A stretch of DNA of 64,000 bases from Candidatus Rokuibacteriota bacterium (GTDB lineage: Bacteria; Methylomirabilota; Methylomirabilia; Rokubacteriales; CSP1-6), in the NCBI GenBank assembly GCA_003220685.1, contig QHTE01000062.1:5624-69623 (forward strand). The letters run 5' to 3'. The notes under the pieces were generated by a model. It searched no databases, was not told the origin of the DNA, and saw only the letters and a program-made list of their open reading frames with translations. Shown here one piece after another: positions 46,426 through 62,238 of the stretch (position 1 is its first letter; each line of letters opens with the position of its first letter). A program made the translations under genes and the position numbers.

Positions 46426-48033
46426 TCACCGCCGCCGCTCGCCCTCCTGGCTTCTCGCAACGACCTGAGCGTACGCTCGCAGATAGTAAACAGCGTCAGG
46501 CGCCCGGGCCACCGCGTCGTCGCCGTCACCCAAGAGAGCGCGCGCCGTCCCACCAAACGATGTCAGAACGCGTCGGGCGAGATCGAGATAGTCGGCCGGA
46601 CCCCCGACCTGGTGCGCCTGGAGCAGCGCCTCGGCCATGACCCCGTTGGCGTCGAGCGACAGCGGGAGGCTCTTGTCGTCGCCGAAGGCGCCCCGGCCGG
46701 CATCGAAGAGGTCGGCCACGGCGAAGCGCAGCACCTGCAGTGCCGTCTGGCGGTAGGATTCCACCCGGACGACTCGATAGCCCTCGAGGAGCCCGAGCGC
46801 GGCCCACGCATTGGCATCGAGCTGCCCCTCGCCATGTCTTTGTCCGGTCCGAGGCTCGTAGAGATGGAAGGCGCCTTTCTCGCTCACCACGTTCAGGCGT
46901 ATGAAGTCGAGCGTGCGCAGCGCAACATCGCGAAGATCCGTTCTCCCCGAGGACCGGCCCAGAGCGAGCAGCGCGACGGCCGCTTCGGCGTTCCACGCCG
47001 TGAGCTTCTCGCGATTCACGGATGGCGCCTGAGCGCTCCGCCGTTCGCGAAGCGACAGTCGGTAATAGGCGGGATTGGCGGTCTGGCTGCTATAAAAGCC
47101 GCCCGCGGTCGCGTCGTGGAGTGTTCGGAGCAGGTACGCGACCGTACGATCCGCGGCCTCCCGGTACCGCGGGTTACCGGTCATCCGGTGAGCCTCGCCC
47201 AGCACGGCCGCCAGTGTTGCGTTGAGATGCACCAGCTTCTCGTAATGCGGCTGGCGCCACTCCCGCCCTTCGGCGAAACGAAAGAAGCCGCCATCGACAG
47301 GGTCATAGAGGGCTCCGAGGACCCCGTCGAGAGTCTTCTCGACGGCGACGAGGTAGCGACGATCCCCAGTGGCCTGGTGTAGCTCGAGCAGATACGCGAG
47401 CAGACGCGGCTGAGGGTATTTGTCGCCGGAGCCAAACCCGCCGTACTCCTTGTCCAGGTTCTCGCCGACGAAGGTGAGCATGCCCTGGCGGAGCCGCCGA
47501 TACGTATTCGAGCTCAGTGGGGCCGAGTTCGGAACGGCGACGGGCCCGGTCTCCGGCGCGGGCGACGGCGACGCGGCGACCTGCTTCACGACGCTCAGAA
47601 AATCGTCCTTCTTGAGCACCCCGGCGAACGATTGCCGGACCCGGCCGTCGGGAGCGAAGAGCACGATCATCGGCAGTCCCCGGGCGTACCTGCGCACGAG
47701 GTCAGGGTGCCGGTCATGGTCGGCGAAGACATTCACGTAGTGCTGGTTCAGGTACTTCGACACCTCGGCGTCGGCCAGCACCTGTTGCTCGAAGTATTTG
47801 CACCAGTAGCACCACACGGCGCTGATCAGGAGAAAGAGGGGTTTGCCTTCCCTCTGCGCAGCCTCGAATGCCGCGGGCGAATGCTCCACGAACCGGACGT
47901 TCGACGTCTGGAGGACGTCGCCCCGGGCGTCCCGGGCGCCGCCAGGGAAGACCCCGAGGGCTCCGAGCGCAAGAACGGCGAGGGATCGTCTTGACAAGCT
48001 CTCTCGGCCGACACAGAGTCTGCGAGCATTCAT
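46426..48033 (-). CDS. thioredoxin-domain (DUF255/YyaL-like) protein with Tat-like signal
   Basis: 535 aa from MNARRL. Has SRRSLAVLALG and the N-terminal Trx-like motif AVWCYWCKYFE. The C-terminal part is alpha-helical and repeat-like. Confidence 0.65.
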   Translation of the reverse strand: MNARRLCVGRESLSRRSLAVLALGALGVFPGGARDARGDVLQTSNVRFVEHSPAAFEAAQREGKPLFLLISAVWCYWCKYFEQQVLADAEVSKYLNQHYVNVFADHDRHPDLVRRYARGLPMIVLFAPDGRVRQSFAGVLKKDDFLSVVKQVAASPSPAPETGPVAVPNSAPLSSNTYRRLRQGMLTFVGENLDKEYGGFGSGDKYPQPRLLAYLLELHQATGDRRYLVAVEKTLDGVLGALYDPVDGGFFRFAEGREWRQPHYEKLVHLNATLAAVLGEAHRMTGNPRYREAADRTVAYLLRTLHDATAGGFYSSQTANPAYYRLSLRERRSAQAPSVNREKLTAWNAEAAVALLALGRSSGRTDLRDVALRTLDFIRLNVVSEKGAFHLYEPRTGQRHGEGQLDANAWAALGLLEGYRVVRVESYRQTALQVLRFAVADLFDAGRGAFGDDKSLPLSLDANGVMAEALLQAHQVGGPADYLDLARRVLTSFGGTARALLGDGDDAVARAPDAVYYLRAYAQVVARSQEGERRR

Positions 48034-48086
48034 GGCTCCGGAAGAAGTATGCGCCCGGACCAGAATCCAGGACAATCGTGCATCGG

Positions 48087-49073
48087 ATGATTTCCCGTAC
48101 CCTGAAGCCTTTGCTCTTCGTGCTCGCGATCGTGGGCGTCCTGTCCGGCGTCGAGGCGCAGCGCCCGGACCGGGTGCCGCGGATCGGCTATCTCGTGGTC
48201 TCGCCGCTTGCCGACCCCCCTTCCGCGGAACGCGCCGCGTTCCTCGACGGCTTGAGAGAGCTCGGCTACGTCGTCGGCCAGAACGTCGTCATCGAGTATC
48301 GATCGGCGGCATGGAATCGTGAGCTCTTGCCCGACCTGGCGGCCGAGCTGGTCAACCTCAAGGTCGACGTCATCGTGGCCGTGCCGGGAGCCATCGACGC
48401 CGCAAGAGACGCGACGAAGACGATCCCCATCATCGTCCCGTCGCTTACGGATCCGGTCGACGAGGGTTACGTCAAGAGCCTCGCGCGCCCCGGCGGGAAT
48501 ATCACGGGGCCCGGCTGGTCGGCGGAAGGATTGACCGGAAAACGGCTGGAGCTGCTCAAGGAGGCCATTCCCAAGCTTTCCCGTGTGGCCGTCCTCTGGA
48601 ATCCGCTCAACGAAGGTGCAAAGCGGCAGTGGCAAGAAGCGCAGGCCGCGGCCCGGAAGCTGCACCTGGCGCTTCAATCTCTGGAAGTGAAAGACCCCAG
48701 CGACGTCCCCAAGGCCTTCGCGACGATGGCGCAAAAGCGTCCCGACGCCTTGATTACCGTGGCCAGCGCGCTCACGACCGCCTATCGGCCGATCATCATC
48801 GAGTTCGCGACCAAGCAGCGAATCCCGACCATGTTCGCGCTGAAAGCCGACGTCGAAGCCGGCGGCCTCATCTCGTATGCGGGGAGTCTGACCGACACCT
48901 TCCGCCGAGCGGCACGCTACGTCGATAGGGTTCTGAAGGGCGCCAACCCCGGCGATTTGCCGATCGAAGATCCCACCAGATTCGAGCTGGCCATCAATCT
49001 CAAGACAGCCAAGACGCTGGGGTTGAAGATCCCTCAGACGCTCTTGCTGCAGGCCGACCAGGTGGTCCAGTAG
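48087..49073 (+). CDS. orphan ABC transporter substrate-binding protein (PF04392-like)
   Basis: 328 aa with a signal peptide. Has PRIGYLVVS and LARPGGNITG motifs. No adjacent permease or ATPase. Confidence 0.75.
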   Translation: MISRTLKPLLFVLAIVGVLSGVEAQRPDRVPRIGYLVVSPLADPPSAERAAFLDGLRELGYVVGQNVVIEYRSAAWNRELLPDLAAELVNLKVDVIVAVPGAIDAARDATKTIPIIVPSLTDPVDEGYVKSLARPGGNITGPGWSAEGLTGKRLELLKEAIPKLSRVAVLWNPLNEGAKRQWQEAQAAARKLHLALQSLEVKDPSDVPKAFATMAQKRPDALITVASALTTAYRPIIIEFATKQRIPTMFALKADVEAGGLISYAGSLTDTFRRAARYVDRVLKGANPGDLPIEDPTRFELAINLKTAKTLGLKIPQTLLLQADQVVQ

Positions 49074-49101: not shown

Positions 49102-51933
49102 TCAGGCGCCATCCAAACGATAGGCAGACGCGTCGGGCTTGAACGCGCGCGGCAGCCAGAGCGGCCGTCTCAGGTTGTCGGGGCCCGGGGCGGGACGGGC
49201 GAGCGCCAGCCACTCACGGTAGACCTCGAACGATTTGTCGGTGTCGACGAACACGTCGCCGTAGCGGTCGTCCGAGCTGGGCCGCGTCACGGTCACCTTC
49301 TGATGCCAGCAATGCTGGCCGCTGACTGGATCGGGCTGGACCGGGAAGGTCAGGTTCTGGTGCACGCCGGCCTCGTTCCACCAGATCCGCGACGAATCGG
49401 GATCGTCGCTCGCGAACGGCCGCGGCCCGTGCCGCTGGCGCATGCGCCACTTGCCCGCGTCGAGCCGGCTCAAATCGACCAGGGCGGTCGACCACCGCTC
49501 GCCGCCCGCGTCCTCGTGCAGGCGCCACCGGCCCAGGTGGTGCGAGCACGCCACCACACCCGGACGCACGGACTCGGTCACCCACACCCGGTCGACGAAA
49601 TGCCCGATGCGCGTCGCGACCTTCAGGAGGTCACCGGTGGCGACGCCGAGCCGCGTCGCGTCCTCGGGATGGAGCCAGAGCGGGTTCGTGTGGGAGATCT
49701 CGTAGAGCCACTTCGCGTTGCCCGACCGCGTATGGATCAAGGTCGGCAGCCGGAACGTCGGCAGCAGGACCATCTCGCCCTTCGCGCGATCGAGGTTCGA
49801 CCAGTGCACGTGGCTCCGGATGTAGTTCGGCACCGCCTGCTCCGGCCACTTCCAAGCCTTCAAGGTCTTGGAGAAGAACTCGAGCTTGCGCGAGGGCGTG
49901 GGAAAGCCGATGTGGCGACGGCCGTCGATCTCGACACCGACCGCCTGTCCGCCCTTGACGACGACCTGCGTGACCGGATCGACCGTCGCGCCGTCCAGCT
50001 CGCGCGCGGACGGCGCCTGCTCGTGCGTGCGGTAGACGCCGTCCTCGATGAGAAATGCGCCGTACTTCCGCATGTACTCGAGCGGCGTCAGCTTCTCCTT
50101 TGCGGCCGCTTCGGGAAGTCCGGGGACGCTGTTCTCGAAGATCCAGCGATACTGCTCCTCGATCCTGAGCTTCTCGCCCGGGCGATAGGGCGACTCGAAG
50201 TACTTTCGGATGCCGAGCGAGCCGTCCGGATCGATCCGCCAGGAAAGCTCGATCCAGAACTCGTCCTCCTCCCAGACCTGGCCGATGCCGGCCGCCTCGT
50301 GGGCCTGCCAGGTGAGATCGAAGCGCTTGCCCGTCCTCTCGAGCGCGACGCGCAGCACGGGCTGGCGGAAGCCGATCCACCGTGCGGCGTGAGTCTCCTG
50401 CGACATCAGATCGTGGCGCTCGGAGGCGTGGCCCATCGGCAGCACGTAGTCGGCGAACCACGCCGTCTCGCTCCAGATCGGCGTGAGACACGCGTGGCGC
50501 TCCACCTTCGTCTCGTCGGTGAGCGCCTCGATCCACGACATCCCATCGGGATTCGTCCACACCGGGTTGTAGACGCGCGTGAAGTACATCGCGAGCTTGC
50601 CGCGGCCCTCTCTCAGGAAATGCGGGAGCAGGAAGCTCATCTCGAAGAACGCGAGTGGATACTCGCGCGGCATCAGGAGCTCGCTCCAGATCTTGGCGGG
50701 CGGCGGCATCATCGGCGGCGCCGGCACCGCCTTGTTCCAGGCGTTGGGCGCGGTCCCCCCGGGCGTGCCGACGGCGCCCATCAACACCACGAGCAGCTCG
50801 AGCGCGCGCGCCACCTGCCAGCCGCCGAGGTTACCGGCGGCGGTGTTGCGCCAGACGTGGGTCGCCAGCGCCGAGCCGGCGCGGCCGATCTCCCGCGCGA
50901 TCTCGACGATCGTCGACGCCGCGACGCCGCTCTCGGCCTCGGCGAACTCCGGGGTGAATCGCGCGTACAGCTCGTCGAGCGCGCGCTCGAACGAGTCGAA
51001 CGTGACCGGAAGATCCGGCCGCTCCTCGCGCAGGTACTCGTCCCAGTTCACCCAGCGTCGCACGAAGTCACGGTCGTAGAGCTTCTCGCGCACGAGGATG
51101 CGCGCCATCGCCAGGAGCACGGCCGACTCCGACCCGGGCCAGGGCGCCAGCCACCAGTCGGCCATCGACGCCGTGTTGCTGAGCCGCGTGTCGAAGACCG
51201 CGATCTTCGCGCCCCGCGCCTTGGCTTCGATGATCCGCTGGGCGTGCGGATTGAAGTAGTGGCCGGTCTCCAGGTGCGAGGAGAGCAGCAGGATGAAGCG
51301 CGCATTCGCGTGATCGGGCGAGGGGCGATCCATGCCGTGCCAGAAGGCGTAGCCGGCCCGCGCGCTCGCCGAGCAGACGTTCGTGTGGCTGTTGTGGCCG
51401 TCGATGCCCCAGGCGTGGAAGACGCGCTGGAGGTAGACGAGCTCGTGTCCCGGGCGGCCGAGGTGGTACATGACTTCGCGCTGCCGCCCCTCGACCAGCG
51501 CTCGGCGGATGCGCCCGCCGATGTCGTCGAGCGCGTCGTCCCACGTGACGCGCTCCCAGCGCCCTCCCCCGCGCGGCCCGACGCGGCGCAGCGGATAGCG
51601 GATGCGCTCGGGATCGGTCACCTGGTTCAAGGTCGCCGGGCCCTTGGCGCAATTGCGCCCGCGGCTTCCCGGATGCGTCGGGTTGCCCTCGAACTTCTGG
51701 ATCGCGAGCGTCTCCCGGTCGACGTAGGCGAGCAGCCCGCAGCCCGCCTCGCAGTTGAAGCAGATCGTCGGGATCAGCGAGTAGCGGCGCGTGACCTTCC
51801 GCGGCCAGGCGACCGGGTCATACTCTTCCCAGTCGTCCCAGCGCTCGACGGGCGGATAGCTCTTGAGACCGCCCTGGGACGCGGCGAGCTCCCGCGCGAC
51901 CGGATGAAGCGGCGCGGGCCCACGCTCGGTCAT
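49102..51933 (-). CDS. molybdopterin (bis-MGD) oxidoreductase catalytic subunit without Tat signal; SoeA-like candidate
   Basis: 943 aa. FS0 motif CFNCEAGCGLLAYV...CAKG, and HPGSRGRNCAKGPAT. No twin-arginine leader. Confidence 0.85.
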   Translation of the reverse strand: MTERGPAPLHPVARELAASQGGLKSYPPVERWDDWEEYDPVAWPRKVTRRYSLIPTICFNCEAGCGLLAYVDRETLAIQKFEGNPTHPGSRGRNCAKGPATLNQVTDPERIRYPLRRVGPRGGGRWERVTWDDALDDIGGRIRRALVEGRQREVMYHLGRPGHELVYLQRVFHAWGIDGHNSHTNVCSASARAGYAFWHGMDRPSPDHANARFILLLSSHLETGHYFNPHAQRIIEAKARGAKIAVFDTRLSNTASMADWWLAPWPGSESAVLLAMARILVREKLYDRDFVRRWVNWDEYLREERPDLPVTFDSFERALDELYARFTPEFAEAESGVAASTIVEIAREIGRAGSALATHVWRNTAAGNLGGWQVARALELLVVLMGAVGTPGGTAPNAWNKAVPAPPMMPPPAKIWSELLMPREYPLAFFEMSFLLPHFLREGRGKLAMYFTRVYNPVWTNPDGMSWIEALTDETKVERHACLTPIWSETAWFADYVLPMGHASERHDLMSQETHAARWIGFRQPVLRVALERTGKRFDLTWQAHEAAGIGQVWEEDEFWIELSWRIDPDGSLGIRKYFESPYRPGEKLRIEEQYRWIFENSVPGLPEAAAKEKLTPLEYMRKYGAFLIEDGVYRTHEQAPSARELDGATVDPVTQVVVKGGQAVGVEIDGRRHIGFPTPSRKLEFFSKTLKAWKWPEQAVPNYIRSHVHWSNLDRAKGEMVLLPTFRLPTLIHTRSGNAKWLYEISHTNPLWLHPEDATRLGVATGDLLKVATRIGHFVDRVWVTESVRPGVVACSHHLGRWRLHEDAGGERWSTALVDLSRLDAGKWRMRQRHGPRPFASDDPDSSRIWWNEAGVHQNLTFPVQPDPVSGQHCWHQKVTVTRPSSDDRYGDVFVDTDKSFEVYREWLALARPAPGPDNLRRPLWLPRAFKPDASAYRLDGA

Positions 51934-51940
51934 GACAGTC

Positions 51941-53491
51941 CTAGCTCAGCGGAACCGACTGCCCGGCCTTCACCCACAAGTCCTCCCAGAGCCACAAGCC
52001 CGCCAGCGCCAGGACCGCGCCGAGCGCGCTCAGCGCGGTCGAGTCCGACGCGGCGCCGGCGATCATCAGCGCCATCGGCAGGACCACGCCGCCGAGCACC
52101 ACGCCGACCCAGAAGCGCGCGCGATAGGATCCGCAGCGGATCAGCCGCGCGGCGAGCGTCGCATCGTGGACGGCGTGGCGCTTGAACACCTCGAGCCCGA
52201 TCAGAAAGCCGTGGGCGACCAGGGACAAGAACAGGAGCGGCCACAGGGTGGCGCTCGGGTCCGCCTCGGGGTGGGGCAGCGGCGCGGCCGCGGCGGCGAT
52301 CGACAAGGCGGCGGCGCCCGCCAGCACGGCGCCGACGATCAGATGCGGAAGCACGAGCGGGCTCTGCCAGAAGTCTCGTCCCTCGGCTTGCCCGAACAGG
52401 AACGCGCTGTAGCCGGCCGTCGCGAGAGCCAGGAGCATCGACGGGACCAGTGCCAGGTGGAGCAGGTCCGATCGTCCCGTCGCGCCCGCCACGAGCCATA
52501 CGGCGCCGGCGGCGCCGAACGCCATCAGGATCCAGGCGCCCCACACGAGCCACGACCGCCAGTTCGGCTTCAGCAAGATGTAGGCGAAGCGCTCGGGGCG
52601 CTTGAGATCCACGACGAGCAGCGCCGTGGTGATCGCGAGGAAGACCAGACTGAGTACCGGCGCGATGCCATTGAAGAGGCTTCCCCACGATTCGGAGCCG
52701 GCGAAGGCCGCGACGAGCAGCACGCCCGCCGAGATCGACTTCGTCCACAGGTAGGCCGAGACCTTCCACCCCCAGGGCCGCACGGCGTGCGGCACGTCGT
52801 AGACGGGCCGGCTGAGCGCGGCGTCCGCGGGGCCGCGCGCCGTGTCCCGGACGGCGGCGACCATCTTCATCAGATCCACTTCTTCACGGGGTCGCTCGGC
52901 CCAGAGATAGCCCTCCGACGGCATCTGCAGCTCGGGCGTGAGCGAGGCGGCGTCGGCGCCGACGTAGAAGACCTTCGGCCGCGTGCCCTGCTCCGCCTTC
53001 CTCACCTGCACCGGCTCGCGCGCCACGGTCACGGCGATCGGCGAAGCGGGGTCGTCGAGATCGCCGGCGATGATCGCGCGCTCGGGGCACACGATCACGC
53101 ATGCGGGCTCGAGGCCGACCTCGACCCGGTGCGCGCAGTAGTTGCACTTCGCCGCGGTCGACGTCTCCGGGTCGATGTAGAGCGCGTCGTAGGGACAGGC
53201 CTGCATGCACGACTTGCAGCCGATGCAGCGGCGGCCGTCGAAGTCCACGATGCCGTCGTCGCGCCGGTAGAGGGCGACGGTCGGGCAGATGGTCACGCAG
53301 GGCGCGGCATCGCAGTGGTTGCACCGGAGCACGGAAAAGTAGCGGCGCGTGTTCGGGAAGACGCCCCGCTCGACGTACTTCACCCAGGTACGGAAGGCGC
53401 CGAGCGGAACGCGATTCTCTTCTTTGCACGCCACCGTGCAGGCGTGGCAGCCGATGCACCGGCGCTGGTCGATCACGAACCCGTAGCGCAC
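51941..53491 (-). CDS. fusion of a four-cluster 4Fe-4S ferredoxin subunit (PsrB/DmsB/SoeB-like) with an NrfD/PsrC/SoeC-like membrane subunit
   Basis: 516 aa. Has CIGCHACTVAC, CNHCDAAPCVTICP, CIGCKSCMQACP and CNYCAHR...CVIVCP, followed by about 8 hydrophobic helices. Confidence 0.85.
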   Translation of the reverse strand: MRYGFVIDQRRCIGCHACTVACKEENRVPLGAFRTWVKYVERGVFPNTRRYFSVLRCNHCDAAPCVTICPTVALYRRDDGIVDFDGRRCIGCKSCMQACPYDALYIDPETSTAAKCNYCAHRVEVGLEPACVIVCPERAIIAGDLDDPASPIAVTVAREPVQVRKAEQGTRPKVFYVGADAASLTPELQMPSEGYLWAERPREEVDLMKMVAAVRDTARGPADAALSRPVYDVPHAVRPWGWKVSAYLWTKSISAGVLLVAAFAGSESWGSLFNGIAPVLSLVFLAITTALLVVDLKRPERFAYILLKPNWRSWLVWGAWILMAFGAAGAVWLVAGATGRSDLLHLALVPSMLLALATAGYSAFLFGQAEGRDFWQSPLVLPHLIVGAVLAGAAALSIAAAAAPLPHPEADPSATLWPLLFLSLVAHGFLIGLEVFKRHAVHDATLAARLIRCGSYRARFWVGVVLGGVVLPMALMIAGAASDSTALSALGAVLALAGLWLWEDLWVKAGQSVPLS

Positions 53492-53494
53492 CGC

Positions 53495-54292
53495 TCAGCC
53501 CCGCGTCAGCATCTGGATCACGTCCCACCACACGCGTGCCGCCGCGAGCACGATCGTGATCGCCAGCGCCCGCTTGAGGTATCGGCTACTCACCCGGTGA
53601 CTCGCCGCCGCGCCGAGCTGGGCCCCCGGAATCACCCCGACGGCGACCGTCAGCGCCGGCACGAACGGGATCTGCTGCGTGACCACCTTGCCCAGGAAGC
53701 CCGCGACTCCCGTCAGCGAGGTGATGGCGAGCGAGCTGGCGATGGTGACCCGAACCGGCACCCCGACCACGACGACGAGCAGGGGCACCAACAGAAACGC
53801 CCCTCCGGCGCCGACGAAGCCCGCGGCGGCGCCTACTCCTCCCGCGACCAGGATGATCCGCACCGGGTCGAATCGCAGCGTATCGCTCGCGCCCTCCGGA
53901 TCTGTCTCCCCGCCCGGCAACAAGATGAGGATCGCGCCAGCCGTCGCCATCACGGCGTAGACCACGAGCAGCCACTGTTCGTCCGTCCACTTGGACGCCA
54001 GGGCGCCCGCGAAGGAGCCGACGGTGGCGGCGATCCCACCGAGAACCGTAAGCTGGCGGTTCACCCGGCCGTACCTTCGGTGAGCGAGGAAGCCTGACAC
54101 CGCGGTGACGAACACGAGCGCCATCGTGACGCCGACGACGTCCCGCACGTCGAGCGCGCCGACGCCGAGAGCGGGGGGAACGTAGAGCAACAGCGGGAAC
54201 ATGACGAGCGCGCCGCCGATGCCCAGGAAGCCGGCGCAGAAGGCGCCGAAGAACCCGATGCCGACGAGGGCTACGCCGAGCGGGGCTGTCAC
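53495..54292 (-). CDS. TauE/SafE (TSUP) family sulfite/anion exporter
   Basis: 265 aa with about 8 TM segments. GFLGIGGALVMFPLL and GAGGAFLLVPLL repeats are typical of TauE/SafE. Confidence 0.8.
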   Translation of the reverse strand: MTAPLGVALVGIGFFGAFCAGFLGIGGALVMFPLLLYVPPALGVGALDVRDVVGVTMALVFVTAVSGFLAHRRYGRVNRQLTVLGGIAATVGSFAGALASKWTDEQWLLVVYAVMATAGAILILLPGGETDPEGASDTLRFDPVRIILVAGGVGAAAGFVGAGGAFLLVPLLVVVVGVPVRVTIASSLAITSLTGVAGFLGKVVTQQIPFVPALTVAVGVIPGAQLGAAASHRVSSRYLKRALAITIVLAAARVWWDVIQMLTRG

Positions 54293-54329
54293 GCATACCC
54301 CTCCGCCGACACGCGCGCGCTCAGCGCCG

Positions 54330-54914
54330 CTACCTGACGCTCGACCAGTATGCCGCCAGGTCGGCGATCTGCTCGTCGGGGATCGTCCGCATCAGCGCCT
54401 TGACCGCCTTGAGCTGCTCGTCGCCCGGGCTCCGCCGATCGGCCTTGAAGAGGAGCATCTGGTTGCGGAGATATCCCGGCGGCTGGCCGGTGAGATCGGG
54501 GACGCCTTTGGAGGCATCGCCCTTGCCCGACACGCCGTGACAGAGCGTGCACTGGACGGACGCGGCCCTCCCGCGCTCGATGGCGGTCGGATCGAGCTTG
54601 ACCGGCGACGGCGTCCGCGCCTGAGCCGCGAAGTACGCGGCGACGTCGTCGACGCCCGATTGCAGCACCGCCTTCGCGTAGGGCTCCATCTCCGGCGATG
54701 TCCGCTTGCCCGCCGCGTAGTCCTGGATCGCCTTCTTGAAGTACCAGGGCGCGATACCGGCCAGGATCGGCATCGTGTTCGACTGACTCTGCCCGGCGAA
54801 TCCATGACACGCGCTGCAGACGAGCGCCTGGGACGCCCCCGGCATGTCGAGCGGCCCCGCCACCACCGGACCCGCGAATGCCAGCACGAGCAGCCAACTC
54901 GTGAGAACACGCAT
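54330..54914 (-). CDS. fccA: diheme cytochrome c subunit of flavocytochrome c sulfide dehydrogenase
   Basis: 194 aa from MRVLTSW. Has a signal peptide and the heme motifs CSACH and CTLCH. Confidence 0.75.
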   Translation of the reverse strand: MRVLTSWLLVLAFAGPVVAGPLDMPGASQALVCSACHGFAGQSQSNTMPILAGIAPWYFKKAIQDYAAGKRTSPEMEPYAKAVLQSGVDDVAAYFAAQARTPSPVKLDPTAIERGRAASVQCTLCHGVSGKGDASKGVPDLTGQPPGYLRNQMLLFKADRRSPGDEQLKAVKALMRTIPDEQIADLAAYWSSVR

Positions 54915-54969
54915 CGTCGTTTCCTTTCGTGCCGAGCAATCGATGAGCGCCGTTATCATTCGCCTGCGC

Positions 54970-56226
54970 CTAGCCGAGCATGTCCGCCCAAATACTGTTA
55001 GCCCAACCGACCGCGTTCTGAGCCCACGCCTCCGACTGTCCAGGCGTGAGCTTCTGCTCGATCTGGACGACCTTGCCGCCCTCGATCTTGTAGCTGTTGA
55101 CGACGGCGATCGCCTCCCGGTCGCTCACCCAGCTGTAGCAGGTGTTTCCGGGCGCAATCGACGGCGCGGGCTTGTCGTTGAGCAGGCTCGTGACCGCGAC
55201 CGCGCAGATCTTGCCCATCGCGTTGGCGATGTTGCCCGACTTCGGCACCGGCAGACCGATCGTCGAATCGCCGATCACGTGGATGTTCTTGTGCTTGACC
55301 GATTCGTAGGTCAGATGGCTGACCTCGCACCAGCGCTTGTCCGCGCCGACCAGGTCCGCCGTGACCGCGATCGTCCCGGCCCGCTGCGGCGGGATCAGGT
55401 TGAGCACGTCGTACTTCACCTTGTCGCCGAGCTCCGTCGTCACCTCGCGCGCGCCCGGATCGACCTTCACGACCTTGTTCGAGCCGCGATACTCGATGTT
55501 CGGGTATGCCGCCCACGCGGCGCGGAACAGGGCGGCCTTCGAGACGAGGTTCGGGTTCGCGTCGAGCACGATCAGCTTTGACTTCGGCTTGCGATTCTTC
55601 AGATACCAGGCGACCTGGCACGTGCGCTCGTACGGTCCGGGCGGGCATCGATAGGCGGCCGGCGGGATCGTCAGCACGAACACGCCGCCGTCCGGCATCG
55701 CCTGGAGCTGTCGAGCCAGCTCGACGGTTTGCGGGCCGGCCTTCCAGGCGTGGAGCACGCGATCTTGCGCGGCGGCGAGCCCGTCGACCTGATCCCACTG
55801 GAACTCGACCCCCGGGGAGACGATGAGCCGGTCGTACGGCAGGGCAGCGGTCCCGACACGGACGCGTCGCGTGTCGGGCTCGATCATCGTGGCCGTCTCG
55901 TGCAGCACCTTGACGCCCTGGGCGCGCAGCCGATCGTAGTTGAAGGTCAGGCTCTCGATCGTGCGCTGTTCGCTCAGCACGAGGTTCGAGAACGGACACG
56001 AGACGAACTCCCGATTCGGCTCGAGCAGGACGACCTCGATCGACGGATCGGCCAGGCGCACGTACTTGGCCGCCGTGGCGCCGCCCCATCCGCCGCCGAT
56101 GACGACGACGCGGCGGCCCGGCTTCTGCGCGAAGTCCGACACCTTCGGGGCGCAGCCCGCGGTAAGGAGCCCGAGCCCGGCCCAGGACGACGTTCGAAGG
56201 AATTCTCTGCGCGTCGACTCCTTCAT
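54970..56226 (-). CDS. fccB: flavocytochrome c sulfide dehydrogenase flavoprotein subunit (FccB/SoxF)
   Basis: 418 aa. Tat motif TRREFLRT. Has VVVIGGGWGGATAAKY and YRCPPGPYER motifs. Confidence 0.85.
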   Translation of the reverse strand: MKESTRREFLRTSSWAGLGLLTAGCAPKVSDFAQKPGRRVVVIGGGWGGATAAKYVRLADPSIEVVLLEPNREFVSCPFSNLVLSEQRTIESLTFNYDRLRAQGVKVLHETATMIEPDTRRVRVGTAALPYDRLIVSPGVEFQWDQVDGLAAAQDRVLHAWKAGPQTVELARQLQAMPDGGVFVLTIPPAAYRCPPGPYERTCQVAWYLKNRKPKSKLIVLDANPNLVSKAALFRAAWAAYPNIEYRGSNKVVKVDPGAREVTTELGDKVKYDVLNLIPPQRAGTIAVTADLVGADKRWCEVSHLTYESVKHKNIHVIGDSTIGLPVPKSGNIANAMGKICAVAVTSLLNDKPAPSIAPGNTCYSWVSDREAIAVVNSYKIEGGKVVQIEQKLTPGQSEAWAQNAVGWANSIWADMLG

Positions 56227-56238
56227 CCCGCCCCTCCG

Positions 56239-57405
56239 CTAGACCACGCTGAACGTGTGCGTCTCTTCGTTCCAGGTCGACAGCATAGCCCACGCGAGCG
56301 CGATCGCGACGATCAACGCGAGGGCGCCCCCCCAACCGAGCGACGCCGGCAAGAAGATCGCCGCGCCGAGCTTCTGCAGTAGTCCGGTCTGGGCGGCGAC
56401 CAGCCGCGCGAGCGAGACGCCCACGGCGAAGCACGCGACGGCCGCCCAGAGCTTCACCTGGCCCTCGCCGGCGCGCCAGAGCGAGCCCGCCCCGCATCCG
56501 CCCGCGAGCGTCATGCCGACGCCGAAGGCCAGACCGCCGGCGAGCGAGCCGAGCCCCGCCGCGGGAAACACCCACTCGCTCTTGTCCTTGAGGTCGGTGA
56601 ACTTCAAGATCGCGAAGCCAAGGGTCGACACCACGAGCGCCAGCGCGGCGGCGCGCGTGTGCTCGGCGTCGCCCGACATGAACGGCTCGCGAAAGGCGCG
56701 CACCAGGCAGAAGCGCGATCGCTGGAAGACCACGCCGAACGCGGCGCCGAAGAGCAGAAAGACGCCCTGCGGCCCGTAGCCCGCGCGCGTGTAGACGAAC
56801 AGCGCCGCCAGGACGAGCCCGGCGACGATCGCGCCGGCCCACGCGTGACCCGCGGCCTCCGGTCCTCCGGCCTGCAGATAGATGCGGCCGCCGCCCCGCG
56901 ACCACTGCGGCCGGTGCGCGACCTCCCAGATCAAATACCGGATGCCGATGAACGCGCCCGCGCCGAGCCCGAGCATCATTCCGAGGCCCGACAGCGACAG
57001 CGCGCTCGTCGCCGAGAAGAACCCGCCAATGTTGCACCCGAAGGCGAGCACGGCGCCGACGCCCATCAGGAGCCCGCCGGCGCCGCCCTTGACGAGCTCG
57101 GCGCGCGCGGGAACGCGGATGGCGAACTCGCGCGACAGGAGCGCCGCGATCGTGCCGCCGACGACCACGCCGATGTTCAAGAGGGAGCCCGAGTAGAGCC
57201 AGGGCGGCAAGAGGTCGGCGCGCCGGACGAGGCCGACGCCGGTCAGCACCCAGTCGCCCCAGTTCCGGAGCCCGTCCGACGCGGTCCACGGGCGATCGAA
57301 GGCGAAGAGGAAGACGTTCAGGGTGGCGACGAGCACGGCGGAGCCCCACACCAGCCACGGGCGCCCGAACACCGCCGCGTACAGCGGAGCGAGCGAGCTC
57401 GGCAC
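56239..57405 (-). CDS. YeeE/YedE family sulfur-compound (thiosulfate-type) transporter
   Basis: 388 aa with a duplicated GCNIGG / GGCGAGS Cys-containing motif in TM regions. Confidence 0.8.
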   Translation of the reverse strand: MPSSLAPLYAAVFGRPWLVWGSAVLVATLNVFLFAFDRPWTASDGLRNWGDWVLTGVGLVRRADLLPPWLYSGSLLNIGVVVGGTIAALLSREFAIRVPARAELVKGGAGGLLMGVGAVLAFGCNIGGFFSATSALSLSGLGMMLGLGAGAFIGIRYLIWEVAHRPQWSRGGGRIYLQAGGPEAAGHAWAGAIVAGLVLAALFVYTRAGYGPQGVFLLFGAAFGVVFQRSRFCLVRAFREPFMSGDAEHTRAAALALVVSTLGFAILKFTDLKDKSEWVFPAAGLGSLAGGLAFGVGMTLAGGCGAGSLWRAGEGQVKLWAAVACFAVGVSLARLVAAQTGLLQKLGAAIFLPASLGWGGALALIVAIALAWAMLSTWNEETHTFSVV

Positions 57406-57412
57406 TAGACCG

Positions 57413-58816
57413 TCACGCGCGGGGAGAGGCGCCCGAGTCCGACGACGAGCGCACGACGGGATAGCCGAACCGCTTCCACGCCGTCATGCCACCCGTGACG
57501 TTGTACCAGCCCTGCAGGCCGTGCCGCTTGAGCGCGCTGATCGCCGTGCTCGAGCGCAGGCCGCCGGCGCAGAGCACGGCCTTGGGCCGGTCGGCCGGCA
57601 CCTCGGCGCGCCGCGCCGCCGCTTCGAGCATCGGCAGGTGGATGGCGCCGTCGATGTGGCCGTCGATCCACTCGGCGTGCTCGCGCACGTCGATCACGGC
57701 CACGTCGCGGCCCTGCTCGAGCCACTCGGCGAGCTCGGACACCGTGATCTGCGGCACCGTCTCGATCGGGAAGCCCTCGCTGCGCCACTCGATCATGCCC
57801 CACTGGAGGAAGCCGCTGATCTCGTCGACGCCGACACGCGCGAGCGCCTGCACGGCGCGATCGAGATCGGACGGACCCTGCGCCAGCAACAGGAGCGGCG
57901 CGCCGGCCGCCACCATGCCCGCGACGCGCTCGGCGAACTGCGGGCTCTCGATCCACACGTTGACGGCGCCGGCGATGTGCATCTCGCCGTAGGTCCCGGG
58001 ATCGCGCAGGTCCAGGACGACGTCGCCGCGCTGCACCGCCTCCCACGCTTCCCGCGCGGTGAAGGGCCGCGGCTTGGCGACCACGAGCGAGATCAGCCCC
58101 TTGTTCTTGCCGACGATCTTCTCGAACGAGGGCGGCTTCGGCGGGAGATCCTTCATGAGGAAATCGACGAACGCCTGGCGGTCGCGGAGCTGGAGCGCCG
58201 GGTTGAAGCGGCGCTCGAAGCCGATCGTCGAGCCCGACTTCGCCGACATCGCTTTCCCGCACGCCGAGCCGGCGCCGTGGGCCGGGTAGACCTCGACACT
58301 GTCGTCGAGCGGCAGCAGCACGCGCTGGAGACTCTCCCAGGCGTCCTCGGCCGCGCGGGCGCCGCCGAGATCGGGGCGTCCGACCGAGCCGACGAACAGC
58401 ATGTCGCCGGTCAGGACGAACCACGGCGCCTCGCCGCGGGACAGGTCGGACACCATCACGCAGATCGAGTCCGGCGTGTGGCCCGGCGTGTGGGCGATCT
58501 TGAAGCGCACGTTGCCGATCCGGAGCTCGTCGCCGTCGCTCACGTCCTGATGCTCGAAGGCCACGCCGGCCGCCCGGTGGACGAGGATCGGCGCCCGCAC
58601 GGCCTCGGCCAGATCGCGGTTGCCGGAGATGTGGTCGGCGTGTGTGTGCGTCTCGAGGATGTGGCTGATCGTGAGGCCCTTCTTGGCGGCGAGGCGGAGG
58701 TATTCGGGGACGCGGTCGCGACCGGGATCGACGACGAGGGCCTTGCCGGCCTCGCCGCAGCCGATCAGGTAGGAAAGGCAGCCAGACTCTTCGTTGAGGA
58801 TCTGCTGGAAGATCAT
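57413..58816 (-). CDS. persulfide dioxygenase (MBL fold) fused to two rhodanese domains (CstB-like)
   Basis: 467 aa. Has HTHADHISG and a C-terminal rhodanese active-site loop, LCAGGLRSS. Confidence 0.85.
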   Translation of the reverse strand: MIFQQILNEESGCLSYLIGCGEAGKALVVDPGRDRVPEYLRLAAKKGLTISHILETHTHADHISGNRDLAEAVRAPILVHRAAGVAFEHQDVSDGDELRIGNVRFKIAHTPGHTPDSICVMVSDLSRGEAPWFVLTGDMLFVGSVGRPDLGGARAAEDAWESLQRVLLPLDDSVEVYPAHGAGSACGKAMSAKSGSTIGFERRFNPALQLRDRQAFVDFLMKDLPPKPPSFEKIVGKNKGLISLVVAKPRPFTAREAWEAVQRGDVVLDLRDPGTYGEMHIAGAVNVWIESPQFAERVAGMVAAGAPLLLLAQGPSDLDRAVQALARVGVDEISGFLQWGMIEWRSEGFPIETVPQITVSELAEWLEQGRDVAVIDVREHAEWIDGHIDGAIHLPMLEAAARRAEVPADRPKAVLCAGGLRSSTAISALKRHGLQGWYNVTGGMTAWKRFGYPVVRSSSDSGASPRA

Positions 58817-58853
58817 CGTCGCCGCCTATTCTACGTCGAAGGGGCTCGACGCC

Positions 58854-60938
58854 CTAGTGCTTCTCGGCCTTCTCCCGCTCCGCCTTGGCCTCCTTGATGA
58901 CCTTCTCGGCGAGGAAGGACGGAACTTCTTCATAGTGCGAGAACTCCATCGAGTATCCGCCCCGGCCGCCCGTCATCGAGCGCAGGCTCGACTCGTAGGT
59001 CAGCATCTCGGCCATCGGCGCCACCGCGCGCACCGCCGCCGTCTCGCCCGCCGGCTCCATGCCGACGATCCGCCCGCGCCGCGAGTTGAGGTCGCCGATG
59101 ACGTCGCCGGCGTGATCCGCGGGGGTCGTGACCTCCACGTTCATGATCGGCTCGAGCAGGATCGGCCGGGCGTCCATGAAGACCTTCTGCAGGCCCATCG
59201 AGGCCGCGATCTGGAACGCCATGTCCGAGGAGTCGACGTCGTGATAGGAGCCGTCGTAGAGCGTGACCTTCATGTCCACGACCGGGTAGCCGGCGAGGAT
59301 CCCCTTCTTCATGCAATCGCGCACGCCCTTCTCGACGGACGGAATGAAGTTGCGGGGCACGGCGCCGCCGAAGATGTCGTCGACGAACTCGAACCCGCCG
59401 CCCCGCTGCAGGGGCTCGACCCGCAGCCAGGTGTCGCCGTACTGGCCGCGCCCGCCCGTCTGCTTCTTGTACTTGCCCTGGCCCTCGGCGCGCCCCTTCA
59501 CGGTCTCCTTGTAGGGGATGCGCGGCGGGAGCAGGTTCACCTCGACGTTGTACTTGCGCTTCATGCGCTCGACGACCATCTCGACGTGGAGGCTGCCCAC
59601 ACCCGAGACCAGCAGCTGCTTGGTCTCCGGGTCGAAGTGGTAGTGGACGGTCGGATCCTCTTCGGCGATCCGCGCCAGCGCGTTGGAGATCTTGTCCTCG
59701 TCGCCGCGGGTCTTCGGCTGGATGGCGAACGAGATCGCCGCCTCCGGGAACGTGATCTTCGGCAGCTCGAACGGCTGCGCCTCTTCGGTCAGCGTGTCGC
59801 CCGTCTGCGTCTCCTTCAGCTTCTGGGCGACGCCGATCTCGCCCGACCCGAGCGCCTCGACGTTCTTCTGCGTCTTGCCCTGCAGCCAGGAAATGTGGCC
59901 CATGCGCTCGCGGGCGCTGTGCGCCGGGTTGAACAAGGTCGAGTCGGCCCTGAGGGTGCCGGTCATGACGCGGAAGAGCGAGAGCTTGCCGATGTGAGGG
60001 TCGCTGAGGGTCTTGAACACCAGGGCCGTCACCGGGCCCTTCGCGTCCACGGTCCGCGTCGCCGCCTGCTTGGTCTTGAGATCCGTGCCCGCGATCTCGG
60101 CCCGATCGGCCGGCGACGGCAGCGAGTCGACGATCAGGTCGAGCAGCCCGTGGACGCCGATCGATTTCGACGCGGCGGCGCACACCACGGGCATCAGCTT
60201 GCCCTCGGAGATACCCATGCGCAGCGCCTTCAGCATCTCGGGCTCCCCGAGCGAGCCCTCCTCGAGATACTTGGCGAGCAGGTCGTCGTCGGTCTCGGCG
60301 GCGGCCTCGACGAGCTTCTCGCGATATTCCTTCGCCCGGGCGGCGAGGTCCGCGGGGATTTCACCCTCGGCGGGCTTGTTGCCCGACAGGGTGACCGCCT
60401 TCATCTTGACGAGATCCACGAAGCCGCGGAACGCCGACTCCTCCCCGATGGGCACGTGCAGCGCGACCAGCCGCCCCTTCAGTCGTTTCCCGAGCGACTC
60501 GAAGGTGCGGAAAAAGTCGGCGCGCTCGCGGTCGAGGCGGTTGACCACGACCACGCGCGGCAGGTTGTATTCGGTCGCGAATTTCCAGACCTTCTCGGTC
60601 TGAACCTGGACCCCCGACACCGCATCGACGATCACGACCGCCGCCTCGACGACCCGGAGGCCGGCGCGGGCGTCGGCGATGAAGTCTCCGTATCCGGGGG
60701 TGTCGACAAGATTGACGTGGTGGCTCTTCCAGTCGCAGTACGCGACCGAGGTGTTGATCGAGATTTTCCGCCTGATTTCGTCGGGATCGAAGTCGGTCGT
60801 GGTCGAGCCGTCGTCCACCCGGCCCAGGCGCGTGACGGCGCCGGCGGCGAACAGCATGGCTTCGACGAGGGATGTTTTGCCGACGCCGCCGTGACCGACG
60901 ACGCCGACGTTCCGGATCTTCCCGATCTCGATCGCCAT
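58854..60938 (-). CDS. elongation factor G family GTPase (EF-G paralog)
   Basis: 694 aa. Has VGHGGVGKTSL, DTPGYGDF and NRLD motifs and a full five-domain length. Confidence 0.9.
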   Translation of the reverse strand: MAIEIGKIRNVGVVGHGGVGKTSLVEAMLFAAGAVTRLGRVDDGSTTTDFDPDEIRRKISINTSVAYCDWKSHHVNLVDTPGYGDFIADARAGLRVVEAAVVIVDAVSGVQVQTEKVWKFATEYNLPRVVVVNRLDRERADFFRTFESLGKRLKGRLVALHVPIGEESAFRGFVDLVKMKAVTLSGNKPAEGEIPADLAARAKEYREKLVEAAAETDDDLLAKYLEEGSLGEPEMLKALRMGISEGKLMPVVCAAASKSIGVHGLLDLIVDSLPSPADRAEIAGTDLKTKQAATRTVDAKGPVTALVFKTLSDPHIGKLSLFRVMTGTLRADSTLFNPAHSARERMGHISWLQGKTQKNVEALGSGEIGVAQKLKETQTGDTLTEEAQPFELPKITFPEAAISFAIQPKTRGDEDKISNALARIAEEDPTVHYHFDPETKQLLVSGVGSLHVEMVVERMKRKYNVEVNLLPPRIPYKETVKGRAEGQGKYKKQTGGRGQYGDTWLRVEPLQRGGGFEFVDDIFGGAVPRNFIPSVEKGVRDCMKKGILAGYPVVDMKVTLYDGSYHDVDSSDMAFQIAASMGLQKVFMDARPILLEPIMNVEVTTPADHAGDVIGDLNSRRGRIVGMEPAGETAAVRAVAPMAEMLTYESSLRSMTGGRGGYSMEFSHYEEVPSFLAEKVIKEAKAEREKAEKH

Positions 60939-61002: not shown

Positions 61003-62238
61003 TTAAGCCCCGACCGCGCGCCGGACCTGGGCCAGGATTTCCTCGTCCGAGCCGGCCAGATCGGTCGGCGCGCCGAGCGCGGGCGGCTCGTATTTGAGGC
61101 CGGCCCCGGTGAAGATCAGCATGATCTCGGCGTCGCGAAGCGCCTCGCCGCGGTCCTTGAGCTGGCCGAGGGCGGCGACGAGCGCGGCCGACTCCGGAGC
61201 GGTCCAGATCCCCTCGGTGCGGGCCACGAGCCGCTGGGCCTCCTGGATGGCGGTCTCACTCACGGCTACCGCGCCGCCGCGGGTGTCGCGAAGGATGCGC
61301 AGCATCTGCCGCCCGGCGAATGGTGACGGCACCCGCAGGCCGGCGGCATGCGTCGTCGGGTTCTCCCACGCGATGGTCGCCTCCGCCCCGGCGGCGAACG
61401 CCCTGACCACGGGAGCGCAGCCCTCCGCCTGCACGGCGAAGAAGCGCGGAAGCGCGCCGGCCAGCCAGCCCATCGCGATCAGCTCCTCGTAGCCCTTGGG
61501 AATGCCGACCAGGCCGGTGCCGCCGCCCGTCGGATAGAGCAGGACGTCGGGCATCCGCCAGTCGAGCTGCTCGGCCAGCTCGAGGCCGATCGTCTTCTTG
61601 CCTTCGAGCCGGTAGGGTTCCTTGAGCGTCGAGAGATCGAACCAGCCGACCTGGGGCGCGACCTTGGCGACCACCCGCCCGGCCGTCGCGATCGAGCCCT
61701 CGATCGTGAAGACGTGGGCGCCGGCGATCTGAGCCTCGGCGACGGCCGCGGGCGGCGTCCCGCGCGGCACGATGACGACGCACGGCAGGCCGCACCGCGC
61801 GGCGTAGACCGCCGCCGCACCGCCCGCGTTGCCGGCGGAGGGAATCACGAAGCCCCGCGCACCGAGCGTGCGCGCGCGCGTGATGGCCATGCCGAGACCG
61901 CGGGCCTTGAACGATCCGGTCGGGTTCTGGCCGTCGTCCTTCGCCCACAGCTTGCGGACGCCGAGATGGGCGGCGAGCCGCGGAAGCTCGAGCAGCGGCG
62001 TTCCACCCTCGCCGAGCGTCACGCGCTCTTCGGAATCGTCGACCGGTGTCAGCTCGCGGAACCGGTACATGCCGGGCGCGCGCCGTCGGAGCGCGTCCTT
62101 CGTCACGCTCGCGGCGACGCGCGGCAGGTCGTAGCGGACGGCGAGCATCTGGCCGCACTTGTCGCAGACGGTCAGCAACCGCTTGGCGTCGTGGTGGGCG
62201 CCGCAGATCGTGCACTCGACGTGGCTGACGAAGCTCAT
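61003..62238 (-). CDS. thrC: threonine synthase with N-terminal zinc ribbon
   Basis: 411 aa. Has CTICG...CDKCG and the PLP-lysine motif NPTGSFKARG. Confidence 0.85.
   Translation of the reverse strand: MSFVSHVECTICGAHHDAKRLLTVCDKCGQMLAVRYDLPRVAASVTKDALRRRAPGMYRFRELTPVDDSEERVTLGEGGTPLLELPRLAAHLGVRKLWAKDDGQNPTGSFKARGLGMAITRARTLGARGFVIPSAGNAGGAAAVYAARCGLPCVVIVPRGTPPAAVAEAQIAGAHVFTIEGSIATAGRVVAKVAPQVGWFDLSTLKEPYRLEGKKTIGLELAEQLDWRMPDVLLYPTGGGTGLVGIPKGYEELIAMGWLAGALPRFFAVQAEGCAPVVRAFAAGAEATIAWENPTTHAAGLRVPSPFAGRQMLRILRDTRGGAVAVSETAIQEAQRLVARTEGIWTAPESAALVAALGQLKDRGEALRDAEIMLIFTGAGLKYEPPALGAPTDLAGSDEEILAQVRRAVGA

Follow-up and report, generated by a model that had tools for sequence, protein, structure and literature searches.

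A candidate sulfur-oxidation locus of soil Rokubacteria with a fused molybdoenzyme distinct from SoeABC

Results

Organization of the seven-gene locus

We analysed a 64,000-nucleotide stretch of contig QHTE01000062.1 from Candidatus Rokuibacteriota bacterium (the window; GC content 65-73%), in which seven genes at 49102-58816 were proposed to take sulfide or persulfide to sulfate, ending with a membrane-bound molybdoenzyme as the sulfite oxidiser. The proposal came from an earlier reading of the DNA letters alone (the sequence-only reading), which described seven co-directional genes with gaps of 3-55 nt. Our check of the open reading frames (ORFs) found all seven on the minus strand and reproduced their coordinates, direction and spacing. 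In the 5' to 3' gene order the gaps are 7, 12, 10, 37, 3 and 7 nt, where the 10-nt gap between fccB and fccA becomes 55 nt when FccA starts at Met16 (54914), the residue at which its signal peptide begins. Pfam and NCBIfam profile searches of the window proteins gave the domain content in Table 1, which agrees with the gene identities of the sequence-only reading for all seven. The catalytic subunit of the molybdoenzyme is called A below, and the iron-sulfur (FeS) and NrfD parts of its partner B and C; the two genes together are the BC-A pair.

Table 1. Features of the locus, in the direction of the genes
Feature	Position in window	Strand	Basis
CstB-type persulfide dioxygenase-rhodanese-rhodanese, 467 aa	57413..58816	-	Pfam Lactamase_B + 2 Rhodanese
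Sulf_transp (YedE/YeeE-family) membrane protein, 388 aa	56239..57405	-	PF04143, 164 bits vs cut-off 27
FccB, flavoprotein subunit of flavocytochrome c sulfide dehydrogenase, 418 aa	54970..56226	-	FCSD_central, FCSD-flav_bind, Pyr_redox_2
FccA, dihaem cytochrome c subunit	54330..54959, probable true start 54914	-	Pfam Cytochrom_C; 2 CxxCH motifs
TauE/SafE-family anion exporter, 265 aa	53495..54292	-	PF01925, 145 bits vs cut-off 32.6
Fused four-cluster ferredoxin (B) + 8-helix NrfD-type quinone anchor (C), 516 aa	51941..53491	-	Fer4_11 + NrfD, one ORF
Molybdenum-bis(pyranopterin guanine dinucleotide) (Mo-bisPGD) catalytic subunit (A), 943 aa, without twin-arginine translocation (Tat) leader	49102..51933	-	Molybdop_Fe4S4, Molybdopterin, Molydop_binding
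Spacer EF-G/dioxygenase, 37 nt, hairpin + conserved GTAGAATAGG	58817..58853	-	comparison of loci
EF-G	58854-60938	-	family profile match, TIGR00484 732 bits
ThrC-family pyridoxal phosphate enzyme	61003-62238	-	family profile match

The dioxygenase, flavocytochrome and transporters

Full-length alignments of the dioxygenase gave E 6e-75 with PDB 3tp9 and E 9e-59 with 3r2u, the three-domain protein of S. aureus. The dioxygenase has an HTHADH (HxHxDH) motif at residue 57, its middle rhodanese domain lacks the active-site Cys, and its last rhodanese domain has the loop C416-AGGLRS, whose Cys416 lines up with the Cys of both structures. By alignment, the product of 57413-58816 is a protein of CstB architecture, with a predicted inactive rhodanese followed by a predicted active one. 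The S. aureus cst operon, where the neighbours are tauE, cstR, cstA and sqr, shares with the window the three-domain architecture, the catalytic Cys in the last rhodanese and a TauE gene nearby. Unlike that operon, the window cluster has no sulfide:quinone oxidoreductase (SQR), CstA or CstR; FccAB takes the place of SQR, and a candidate sulfite oxidiser is added. The CstB prototype of S. aureus reportedly yields thiosulfate as well as sulfite.

FccB matched the Allochromatium vinosum protein (PDB 1fcd_A) with E 8e-99. Its C77 aligns with the FAD-binding Cys of A. vinosum, the redox pair C194 and C363 is present, and, as in A. vinosum, the partner is a dihaem cytochrome. Every feature of the family that we tested was found, and FccAB is by prediction a periplasmic flavocytochrome c sulfide dehydrogenase. 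Its periplasmic location, as first proposed, was borne out by a Tat signal (RREFLR) and lipobox (LTAGC) at the N terminus of FccB and by the signal peptide of FccA. Because the lipobox comes after the Tat signal, FccB is probably a Tat-exported lipoprotein tethered to the membrane, rather than soluble as in purple sulfur bacteria; this is where it differs from A. vinosum FccAB.

The Sulf_transp protein shares its fold and three conserved cysteines (C124, C233 and C304) with YeeE/TsuA of S. thermophila (PDB 6leo, 8k1r) and with the selenium-related YedE/FdhT proteins. It is colinear with the NCBIfam YedE/FdhT model, which it matched with 128 bits, under the cut-off of 350, and the TsuA models, whose cut-offs are 400-645, gave 79-102 bits. 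Compared with S. thermophila YeeE (6leo), the two halves of the protein have changed places, the N-terminal half aligning with the C-terminal half and vice versa. The earlier label "YeeE-type transporter" thus stands at the level of the PF04143 superfamily, to which the protein belongs by profile, and falls for TsuA/YeeE itself, from which it departs in model score, domain order and the lack of an adjacent TsuB/YeeD or other TusA-like gene. Import of sulfur or thiosulfate is one possible role for it; other substrates, or transport in the other direction, may also apply. That no YeeD/TusA partner accompanies it is true of the cluster, and the genome has a single tusA gene on another contig (C91), beside a cysteine desulfurase gene.

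The molybdoenzyme and SoeABC

The best 120 relatives of A in protein collections were all from Rokubacteria and carried generic names, and look-ups of protein clusters added no informative ones. For comparison with SoeABC, the membrane-bound sulfite:quinone oxidoreductase of A. vinosum, Aquifex aeolicus and Ruegeria pomeroyi, the A. vinosum FccB sequence was reconstructed with the help of a PDB alignment and served as a route to genomes of Chromatiaceae and other sulfur oxidisers, eight of which were searched with the window A subunit. All eight contain a Tat-less ORF of ~965-996 aa. Its flanks, read in four of them (Allochromatium humboldtianum, Thiocystis, Thiothrix and Hydrogenophilus), encode an FeS protein of ~240 aa and then an NrfD protein of ~320 aa, the A-B-C layout and subunit sizes known for SoeABC (Dahl et al. 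2013, as summarised in PMC5114278 and PMC8076601). The window enzyme resembles SoeABC in several respects: both are membrane-bound complexes of a Mo-bisPGD subunit, a four-cluster FeS protein and an NrfD anchor, both lack a Tat leader and have the same charge bias of the anchor, both occur in a sulfur-oxidation context, and their A subunits differ little in length (943 vs about 965 aa). Unlike in SoeABC, where the order is soeA-soeB-soeC, B and C form one 516-aa protein in the window, which is encoded upstream of A.

Despite these likenesses, A is only 23-25% identical to SoeA (123-136 bits in five genomes, of Chromatiaceae, Thiothrix and Hydrogenophilus), which is no higher than its similarity to other paralogues of the DMSO-reductase family. 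Its matches to Tat-dependent periplasmic B-C-A enzymes of Psr/Phs-like type reach 32-33% and 380-422 bits. Likewise, the B domain is 36-37% identical to SoeB vs 46-51% to the Tat-dependent periplasmic relatives, and the C domain has no significant match to SoeC (E > 0.1) and matches the periplasmic relatives with 31-35% identity (E 1e-7 to 1e-14). As periplasmic enzymes we took those from Azoarcus sp. KH32C (plasmid pAZKH), Hydrogenophilus thiooxidans and A. humboldtianum (contig C2), all three of which have the twin-arginine leader. They are the closest enzymes outside the clade of the window and, as in the window, their B and C genes precede A. They differ from the window enzyme in the RR leader on A, in having separate B and C proteins, in a TorD-type chaperone and in the opposite charge bias of a periplasm-facing enzyme; the chaperone is encoded after A in the Azoarcus cluster, and likewise by an ORF in the same position in A. 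humboldtianum.

In a 49-sequence tree (quick method, LG+G4), in which several rows have odd composition and of which only well-supported splits were used, the window sequence falls in a clade with 100% support in the Shimodaira-Hasegawa-like approximate likelihood ratio test (SH-aLRT). This clade unites Rokubacteria, Thermomicrobium roseum, Rhodococcus jostii RHA1, Natrinema and some Tat-bearing metagenomic members, and the SoeA clade lies elsewhere. The window, SoeA and Tat-dependent groups all score best on the PhsA model, far under its cut-off, and these comparisons make them distinct branches within the Psr/Phs-like portion of the family. Whether phylogeny would place the enzyme with polysulfide- or thiosulfate-type reductases, a point raised in the sequence-only reading, has a divided answer: Psr/Phs-like enzymes are closest, yet the clade is distinct and fully supported. 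By sequence, then, the molybdoenzyme is not SoeABC and belongs to a clade of its own, which includes the two-gene enzymes of Thermomicrobium, Rhodococcus and haloarchaea. The Soe-type reading had to be given up, with 24% identity and ~130 bits to SoeA vs 32% and 380-420 bits to the Psr/Phs-like enzymes. The variant "SoeABC with fused SoeBC" was ruled out by the pairwise scores, the tree and the comparisons of the B and C domains.

The cysteines of the FS0 cluster of A are C58, C61, C65 and C95, and Cys187 aligns with one Cys of PsrA and ArrA, which we take to be the Mo ligand of those enzymes. Two Tat-less metagenomic relatives within the window clade (P0127 and P0128) have lost the Cys at this position, and P0127 also lacks the N-terminal FeS-cluster cysteines; possibly these are paralogues that lack catalytic activity or are ligated in another way.

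The architecture also fits the description of PSRLC3 of green sulfur bacteria, a two-gene enzyme presented in published accounts as an inferred sulfite oxidase whose activity was never shown (PMC5473276, PMC9324843, PMC6338057). Both are complexes of a PsrA-like protein and a fused PsrBC-like protein that accompany sulfur-oxidation genes, although the partner genes are dsr in green sulfur bacteria and those for persulfide dioxygenase, Fcc, YedE and TauE here.

Predicted orientation of the molybdoenzyme

Inspection of the N termini found no twin-arginine leader on either A or the FeS-NrfD protein. We aligned the NrfD parts, located eight consensus helices and counted lysines and arginines (K+R) in the loops. 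The window protein has 16 K+R in the loops on the side of the N terminus vs 1 on the other side, and 15 fused proteins gave 10-16 vs 0-3. True SoeC proteins gave 18-20 vs 1-3, whereas the bias was reversed in the three Tat-dependent relatives (3-4 vs 7-10). Given this bias, the positive-inside rule would place the docking face and the fused FeS domain in the cytoplasm, as in Soe. The missing leader and the SoeC-like charge bias support a molybdoenzyme that faces the cytoplasm, as the sequence-only reading had it, and the anchor is by the same prediction inverted relative to the nearest sequence relatives. Since those B-C-A relatives face the periplasm, the inward orientation that the fused family appears to share with SoeABC is most simply explained by convergence.

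Gene neighborhoods of the BC-A pair

Within the genus of the window, the neighbors of the BC-A pair are the persulfide dioxygenase and TauE genes, which accompany it in other Rokubacteria genera too. Two genomes of a second Rokubacteria family (L029:8546-9451 and L031:7545-9496) have ComA directly upstream of the pair, in one of them with TauE between ComA and BC (ComA-TauE-BC-A, L031). ComA is phosphosulfolactate synthase, whose substrates are sulfite and phosphoenolpyruvate. On plasmid pRHL3 of R. jostii RHA1 (L035, 213-234 kb), BC-A follows DsrE-like and TusA genes, and nearby are ArsR-type regulators and three hydrolase genes of the metallo-β-lactamase (MBL) fold, two of which encode proteins of ~455-460 aa, a likeness to the dioxygenase-rhodanese fusion by length alone. 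On the megaplasmid of T. roseum (L034), the pair follows a regulator gene of the CsoR family, which includes persulfide sensors. An Mrp/NBP35 gene comes after A in haloarchaea and Rhodococcus, on pRHL3 as well. The common theme of these neighborhoods is cytoplasmic sulfite or sulfane sulfur, and it recurs across independent lineages, which makes sulfite a plausible substrate of the BC-A family. Among the carriers, R. jostii RHA1 and T. roseum are cultivable, and their fused BC-A enzymes are 60% and 66% identical, respectively, to that of the window. A literature search on Rokubacteria with soeA or sulfite dehydrogenase gave no specific description, and a paper on the CsoR regulon of Thermus contained no tie to the fused enzyme.

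Conservation and synteny

The fused FeS-NrfD protein was found at full length, with 59-92% identity, in ~65 of 121 sampled genomes of the phylum, and its carriers span most of the family and order of the window. Outside this genome, we mapped the window proteins onto 20 Rokubacteria loci. Nineteen of these retain the BC-A pair; in the remaining one (L031) the contig stretch stops ~1.3 kb past BC, too short for A. The full order ThrC-EFG-PDO-YeeE-FccB-FccA-TauE-BC-A (PDO, persulfide dioxygenase) is shared by four genomes from the genus of the window and by one from a different genus. Subsets occur in other genera, namely PDO-YeeE-BC-A, YeeE-FccBA-TauE-BC-A or FccBA-TauE-BC-A; thus L025 has PDO-YeeE-BC-A without Fcc, and L023, L024 and L027 have Fcc-TauE-BC-A without PDO and YeeE. 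Comparative genomics, one of the checks suggested with the sequence-only reading, therefore found the full gene order in two genera and modular variants elsewhere. Because the order and its subsets recur in this way, the arrangement is not due to chance but is modular and conserved. The molybdoenzyme is 78-96% identical over four Rokubacteriales loci and 62% identical in a deeper-branching member of the phylum, and within the cluster, identity among relatives is lowest for tauE (42-83%). In one Rokubacteria genus (L019:7342-8388), a gene for an FGE-sulfatase-domain (formylglycine-generating-enzyme-like) protein lies between fccA and the YedE-like gene.

Transcription and the 5' boundary

Twenty soil metagenome runs contain the stretch almost completely. 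Short metatranscriptome contigs from soil and rhizosphere, of 90-100% identity, lie over all seven genes, and contigs with exact matches, from a run of the same study as one of the DNA-holding runs, fall in the genes for the dioxygenase, FccA, FccB and A. RNA contigs bridge the junctions BC|A (51749-51994) and YeeE|FccB (55971-56340), while tauE and its junctions are barely covered. The single operon of the sequence-only reading is thus supported at two of its six junctions.

Upstream and on the same strand lie EF-G, 37 nt from the dioxygenase gene, and the ThrC-like gene, 64 nt from EF-G. In relatives, RNA contigs run at least 120 nt upstream of the dioxygenase start. The element GTAGAATAGG is invariant 8-12 nt before the dioxygenase ATG in seven loci with differing flanks, among them L014-L017, L020 and L025, including one without an adjacent EF-G, and is preceded by a hairpin that shows compensatory changes. 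Its role may be that of a promoter -10 element or an operator, or it may be an RNA element that also takes in the ribosome-binding site. Scans for promoter and terminator consensus sequences gave nothing above chance. The unit may be seven genes with a control element of their own, or may be read through from EF-G.

Other sulfur genes in the genome

The genome is 88% complete, and the absences below hold for that assembly. The search for further sulfur genes proposed with the sequence-only reading was run and returned tusA, as given above, and SorAB, but no AprA or SQR. SorAB is encoded on contig C50 (236531-238081; SorA 565 bits vs a cut-off of 600, SorB 98.6 vs 93), SoxC on contig C63 (20903-22769 with the cytochrome c gene after it; TIGR04555, 581 bits vs a cut-off of 420), and a second, stand-alone dioxygenase on C132. 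Searches for AprA and DsrA gave nothing above noise, and tblastn found no SQR-like paralogue of FccB. The Sox system is therefore "soxCD-less", as had been stated, in the window and not in the genome, and the cluster can no longer be seen as the unique filler of a gap in Sox, since SoxC with its cytochrome c and SorAB are encoded elsewhere. Because AprA and DsrA were not found, no other cytoplasmic route for sulfite is apparent; by gene content, the cluster is the only candidate sulfite oxidiser on the cytoplasmic side and not the sole one of the organism.

Discussion

A periplasmic and a cytoplasmic module

We favor the interpretation, with a probability of about 55%, that the cluster is a conserved sulfur-oxidation locus of soil Rokubacteria whose periplasmic and cytoplasmic modules take sulfide or persulfide to sulfite and on to sulfate. 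In this scheme, FccAB would oxidise sulfide outside the membrane to sulfane sulfur and pass the electrons to cytochrome c. Sulfane sulfur or thiosulfate would enter through the YedE/YeeE-like protein, the rhodanese domain would load a low-molecular-weight thiol persulfide, and the dioxygenase would turn this with O2 into sulfite. The inward-facing molybdoenzyme would then oxidise sulfite to sulfate, sending two electrons through its four FeS clusters to quinone in the NrfD anchor, and TauE would export sulfate or surplus sulfite. The molybdoenzyme would act like SoeABC while forming a separate lineage, descended from Psr/Phs-like enzymes and inverted in orientation, and the locus would work beside, not in place of, Sox, SoxC-cytochrome c and SorAB. 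Of the route as first drawn, the overall course remains plausible from synteny and from sulfite-linked neighborhoods elsewhere; the molybdoenzyme is not of Soe type, and the cluster is not the only sulfite oxidiser of the organism.

Several observations weigh against this interpretation. The nearest sequence neighbors of the molybdoenzyme are periplasmic Psr/Phs-like enzymes, and among NCBIfam models A scores best on PhsA, with 193 bits, far under its cut-off; both would suit a role in reduction or in the handling of sulfane sulfur. The sulfite reading survives this affinity because of orientation and gene contexts only: sulfite as the substrate rests on context in a family that is biochemically uncharacterised, and PSRLC3 was matched by its published description alone. 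The S. aureus CstB prototype reportedly yields thiosulfate, not free sulfite. We know of no carrier by which YedE-like proteins would transfer periplasmic sulfane sulfur inward, and the window cluster has no TusA/YeeD partner gene beside the Sulf_transp gene. With SorAB and SoxC present, sulfite could leave via TauE and be oxidised outside. As to the operon, the metatranscriptome contigs, most of which come from relatives, are short and may contain DNA, and the junctions besides BC|A and YeeE|FccB are not convincingly spanned.

An unlikely but serious alternative is that the cytoplasmic genes dispose of thiosulfate or of sulfite from organosulfur compounds independently of FccAB. The YedE/YeeE-like protein would import thiosulfate, a rhodanese would split it into persulfide and sulfite, and the dioxygenase and the molybdoenzyme would finish the oxidation, with FccAB merely a syntenic periplasmic electron-donor module. 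Such a division agrees with the separation of the modules in relatives (L025; L023, L024 and L027; L031), and with the lack of an SQR gene and of a known entry for periplasmic sulfane sulfur. The sole YeeE that has been solved and assayed (PDB 6leo, 8k1r) is reportedly a thiosulfate importer, but the window protein is permuted with respect to TsuA, scores under every NCBIfam cut-off and has no TsuB/YeeD partner. Against independence from FccAB also speak the full seven-gene order, kept with 3-55 nt gaps in two genera, and the RNA contig that bridges YeeE and FccB.

Slightly less probable, in our estimate, is a molybdoenzyme that is an inward-facing oxidoreductase of sulfane sulfur, polysulfide, thiosulfate or tetrathionate instead of a sulfite dehydrogenase, for example one for quinol-dependent trimming of cytoplasmic polysulfide or persulfide, or a thiosulfate:quinone enzyme using the CstB-type product. 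All three of its modules are nearest to the Tat-dependent Psr/Phs-like B-C-A enzymes, PhsA is its top named model, and Cys187 aligns with the presumed Mo-ligand Cys of PsrA and ArrA, although a fully supported branch parts its clade from the Psr/Phs-like groups. The TusA, DsrE and rhodanese neighbors handle sulfane sulfur as well as sulfite, and CstB-type enzymes reportedly can release thiosulfate; the ComA and TauE neighborhoods, on the other hand, point to sulfite in particular. Moreover, production of sulfide inside the cell beside a sulfide-oxidising module is physiologically implausible, and quinol-driven reduction of thiosulfate is endergonic by general thermodynamics.

That the row is conserved synteny only, part of a longer ancestral block with EF-G and ThrC, several promoters and unrelated roles, is improbable: the co-directional EF-G and ThrC-like genes (gaps of 37 and 64 nt), which also stand next to the cluster at 12 of the 20 loci compared, at times in swapped order, the conserved hairpin and GTAGAATAGG before the dioxygenase, the lack of promoter or terminator consensus above chance and the poor RNA coverage of tauE would suit it, but sulfur compounds are the substrates of all seven products, three gaps are of 7 nt or less, RNA contigs bridge two junctions, and the same partners surround BC-A in unrelated phyla.

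A possible second origin of cytoplasmic sulfite oxidation

Within the favored sulfide-to-sulfate interpretation, we tentatively suggest, at somewhat less than even odds, that the BC-A enzyme is a second cytoplasmic sulfite:quinone oxidoreductase, independent of SoeABC, and that it gives Rokubacteria a complete sulfide-to-sulfate pathway without SQR or adenosine 5'-phosphosulfate (APS) reductase. A Tat-exported Psr/Phs-like B-C-A enzyme would have lost its leader, and its B subunit would have been welded to an inverted anchor. The partners in the pathway would be the membrane-tethered FccAB, the YedE-like importer and the CstB-type dioxygenase, with energy conserved at the level of quinone.

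Rokubacteria, which to our knowledge have never been cultured, abound in soils and rank with the most abundant bacteria there that lack cultures. If the sulfide/persulfide-to-sulfate reading is true, they would contribute to sulfur oxidation in soil. The survey labels "SoeABC" and "polysulfide reductase" would both mislabel the fused BC-A enzyme, whose large, uncharacterised family spans Rokubacteria, Thermomicrobia, Actinobacteria and haloarchaea. The value of the present locus lies in the well-conserved, transcribed context that it provides for this PSRLC3-type enzyme; a function found for one carrier would serve the whole family, in which the inward orientation has possibly arisen for a second time.

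Flanking genes

The ThrC-like protein upstream of EF-G has three more paralogues elsewhere in the genome. Cysteate synthase, a sulfite-using enzyme, is among the relatives of ThrC, and the window protein matched its model with 93 bits only, against a cut-off of 325. On the other side, between the sox genes and the cluster, lie genes for a DUF255/thioredoxin-domain protein (46426-48075, minus strand) and a PF04392 ABC substrate-binding protein (47868-49073, plus strand). The latter gene, which has more than 20 paralogues in the genome, is convergent with that of the Mo subunit, their stop codons being 28 nt apart.

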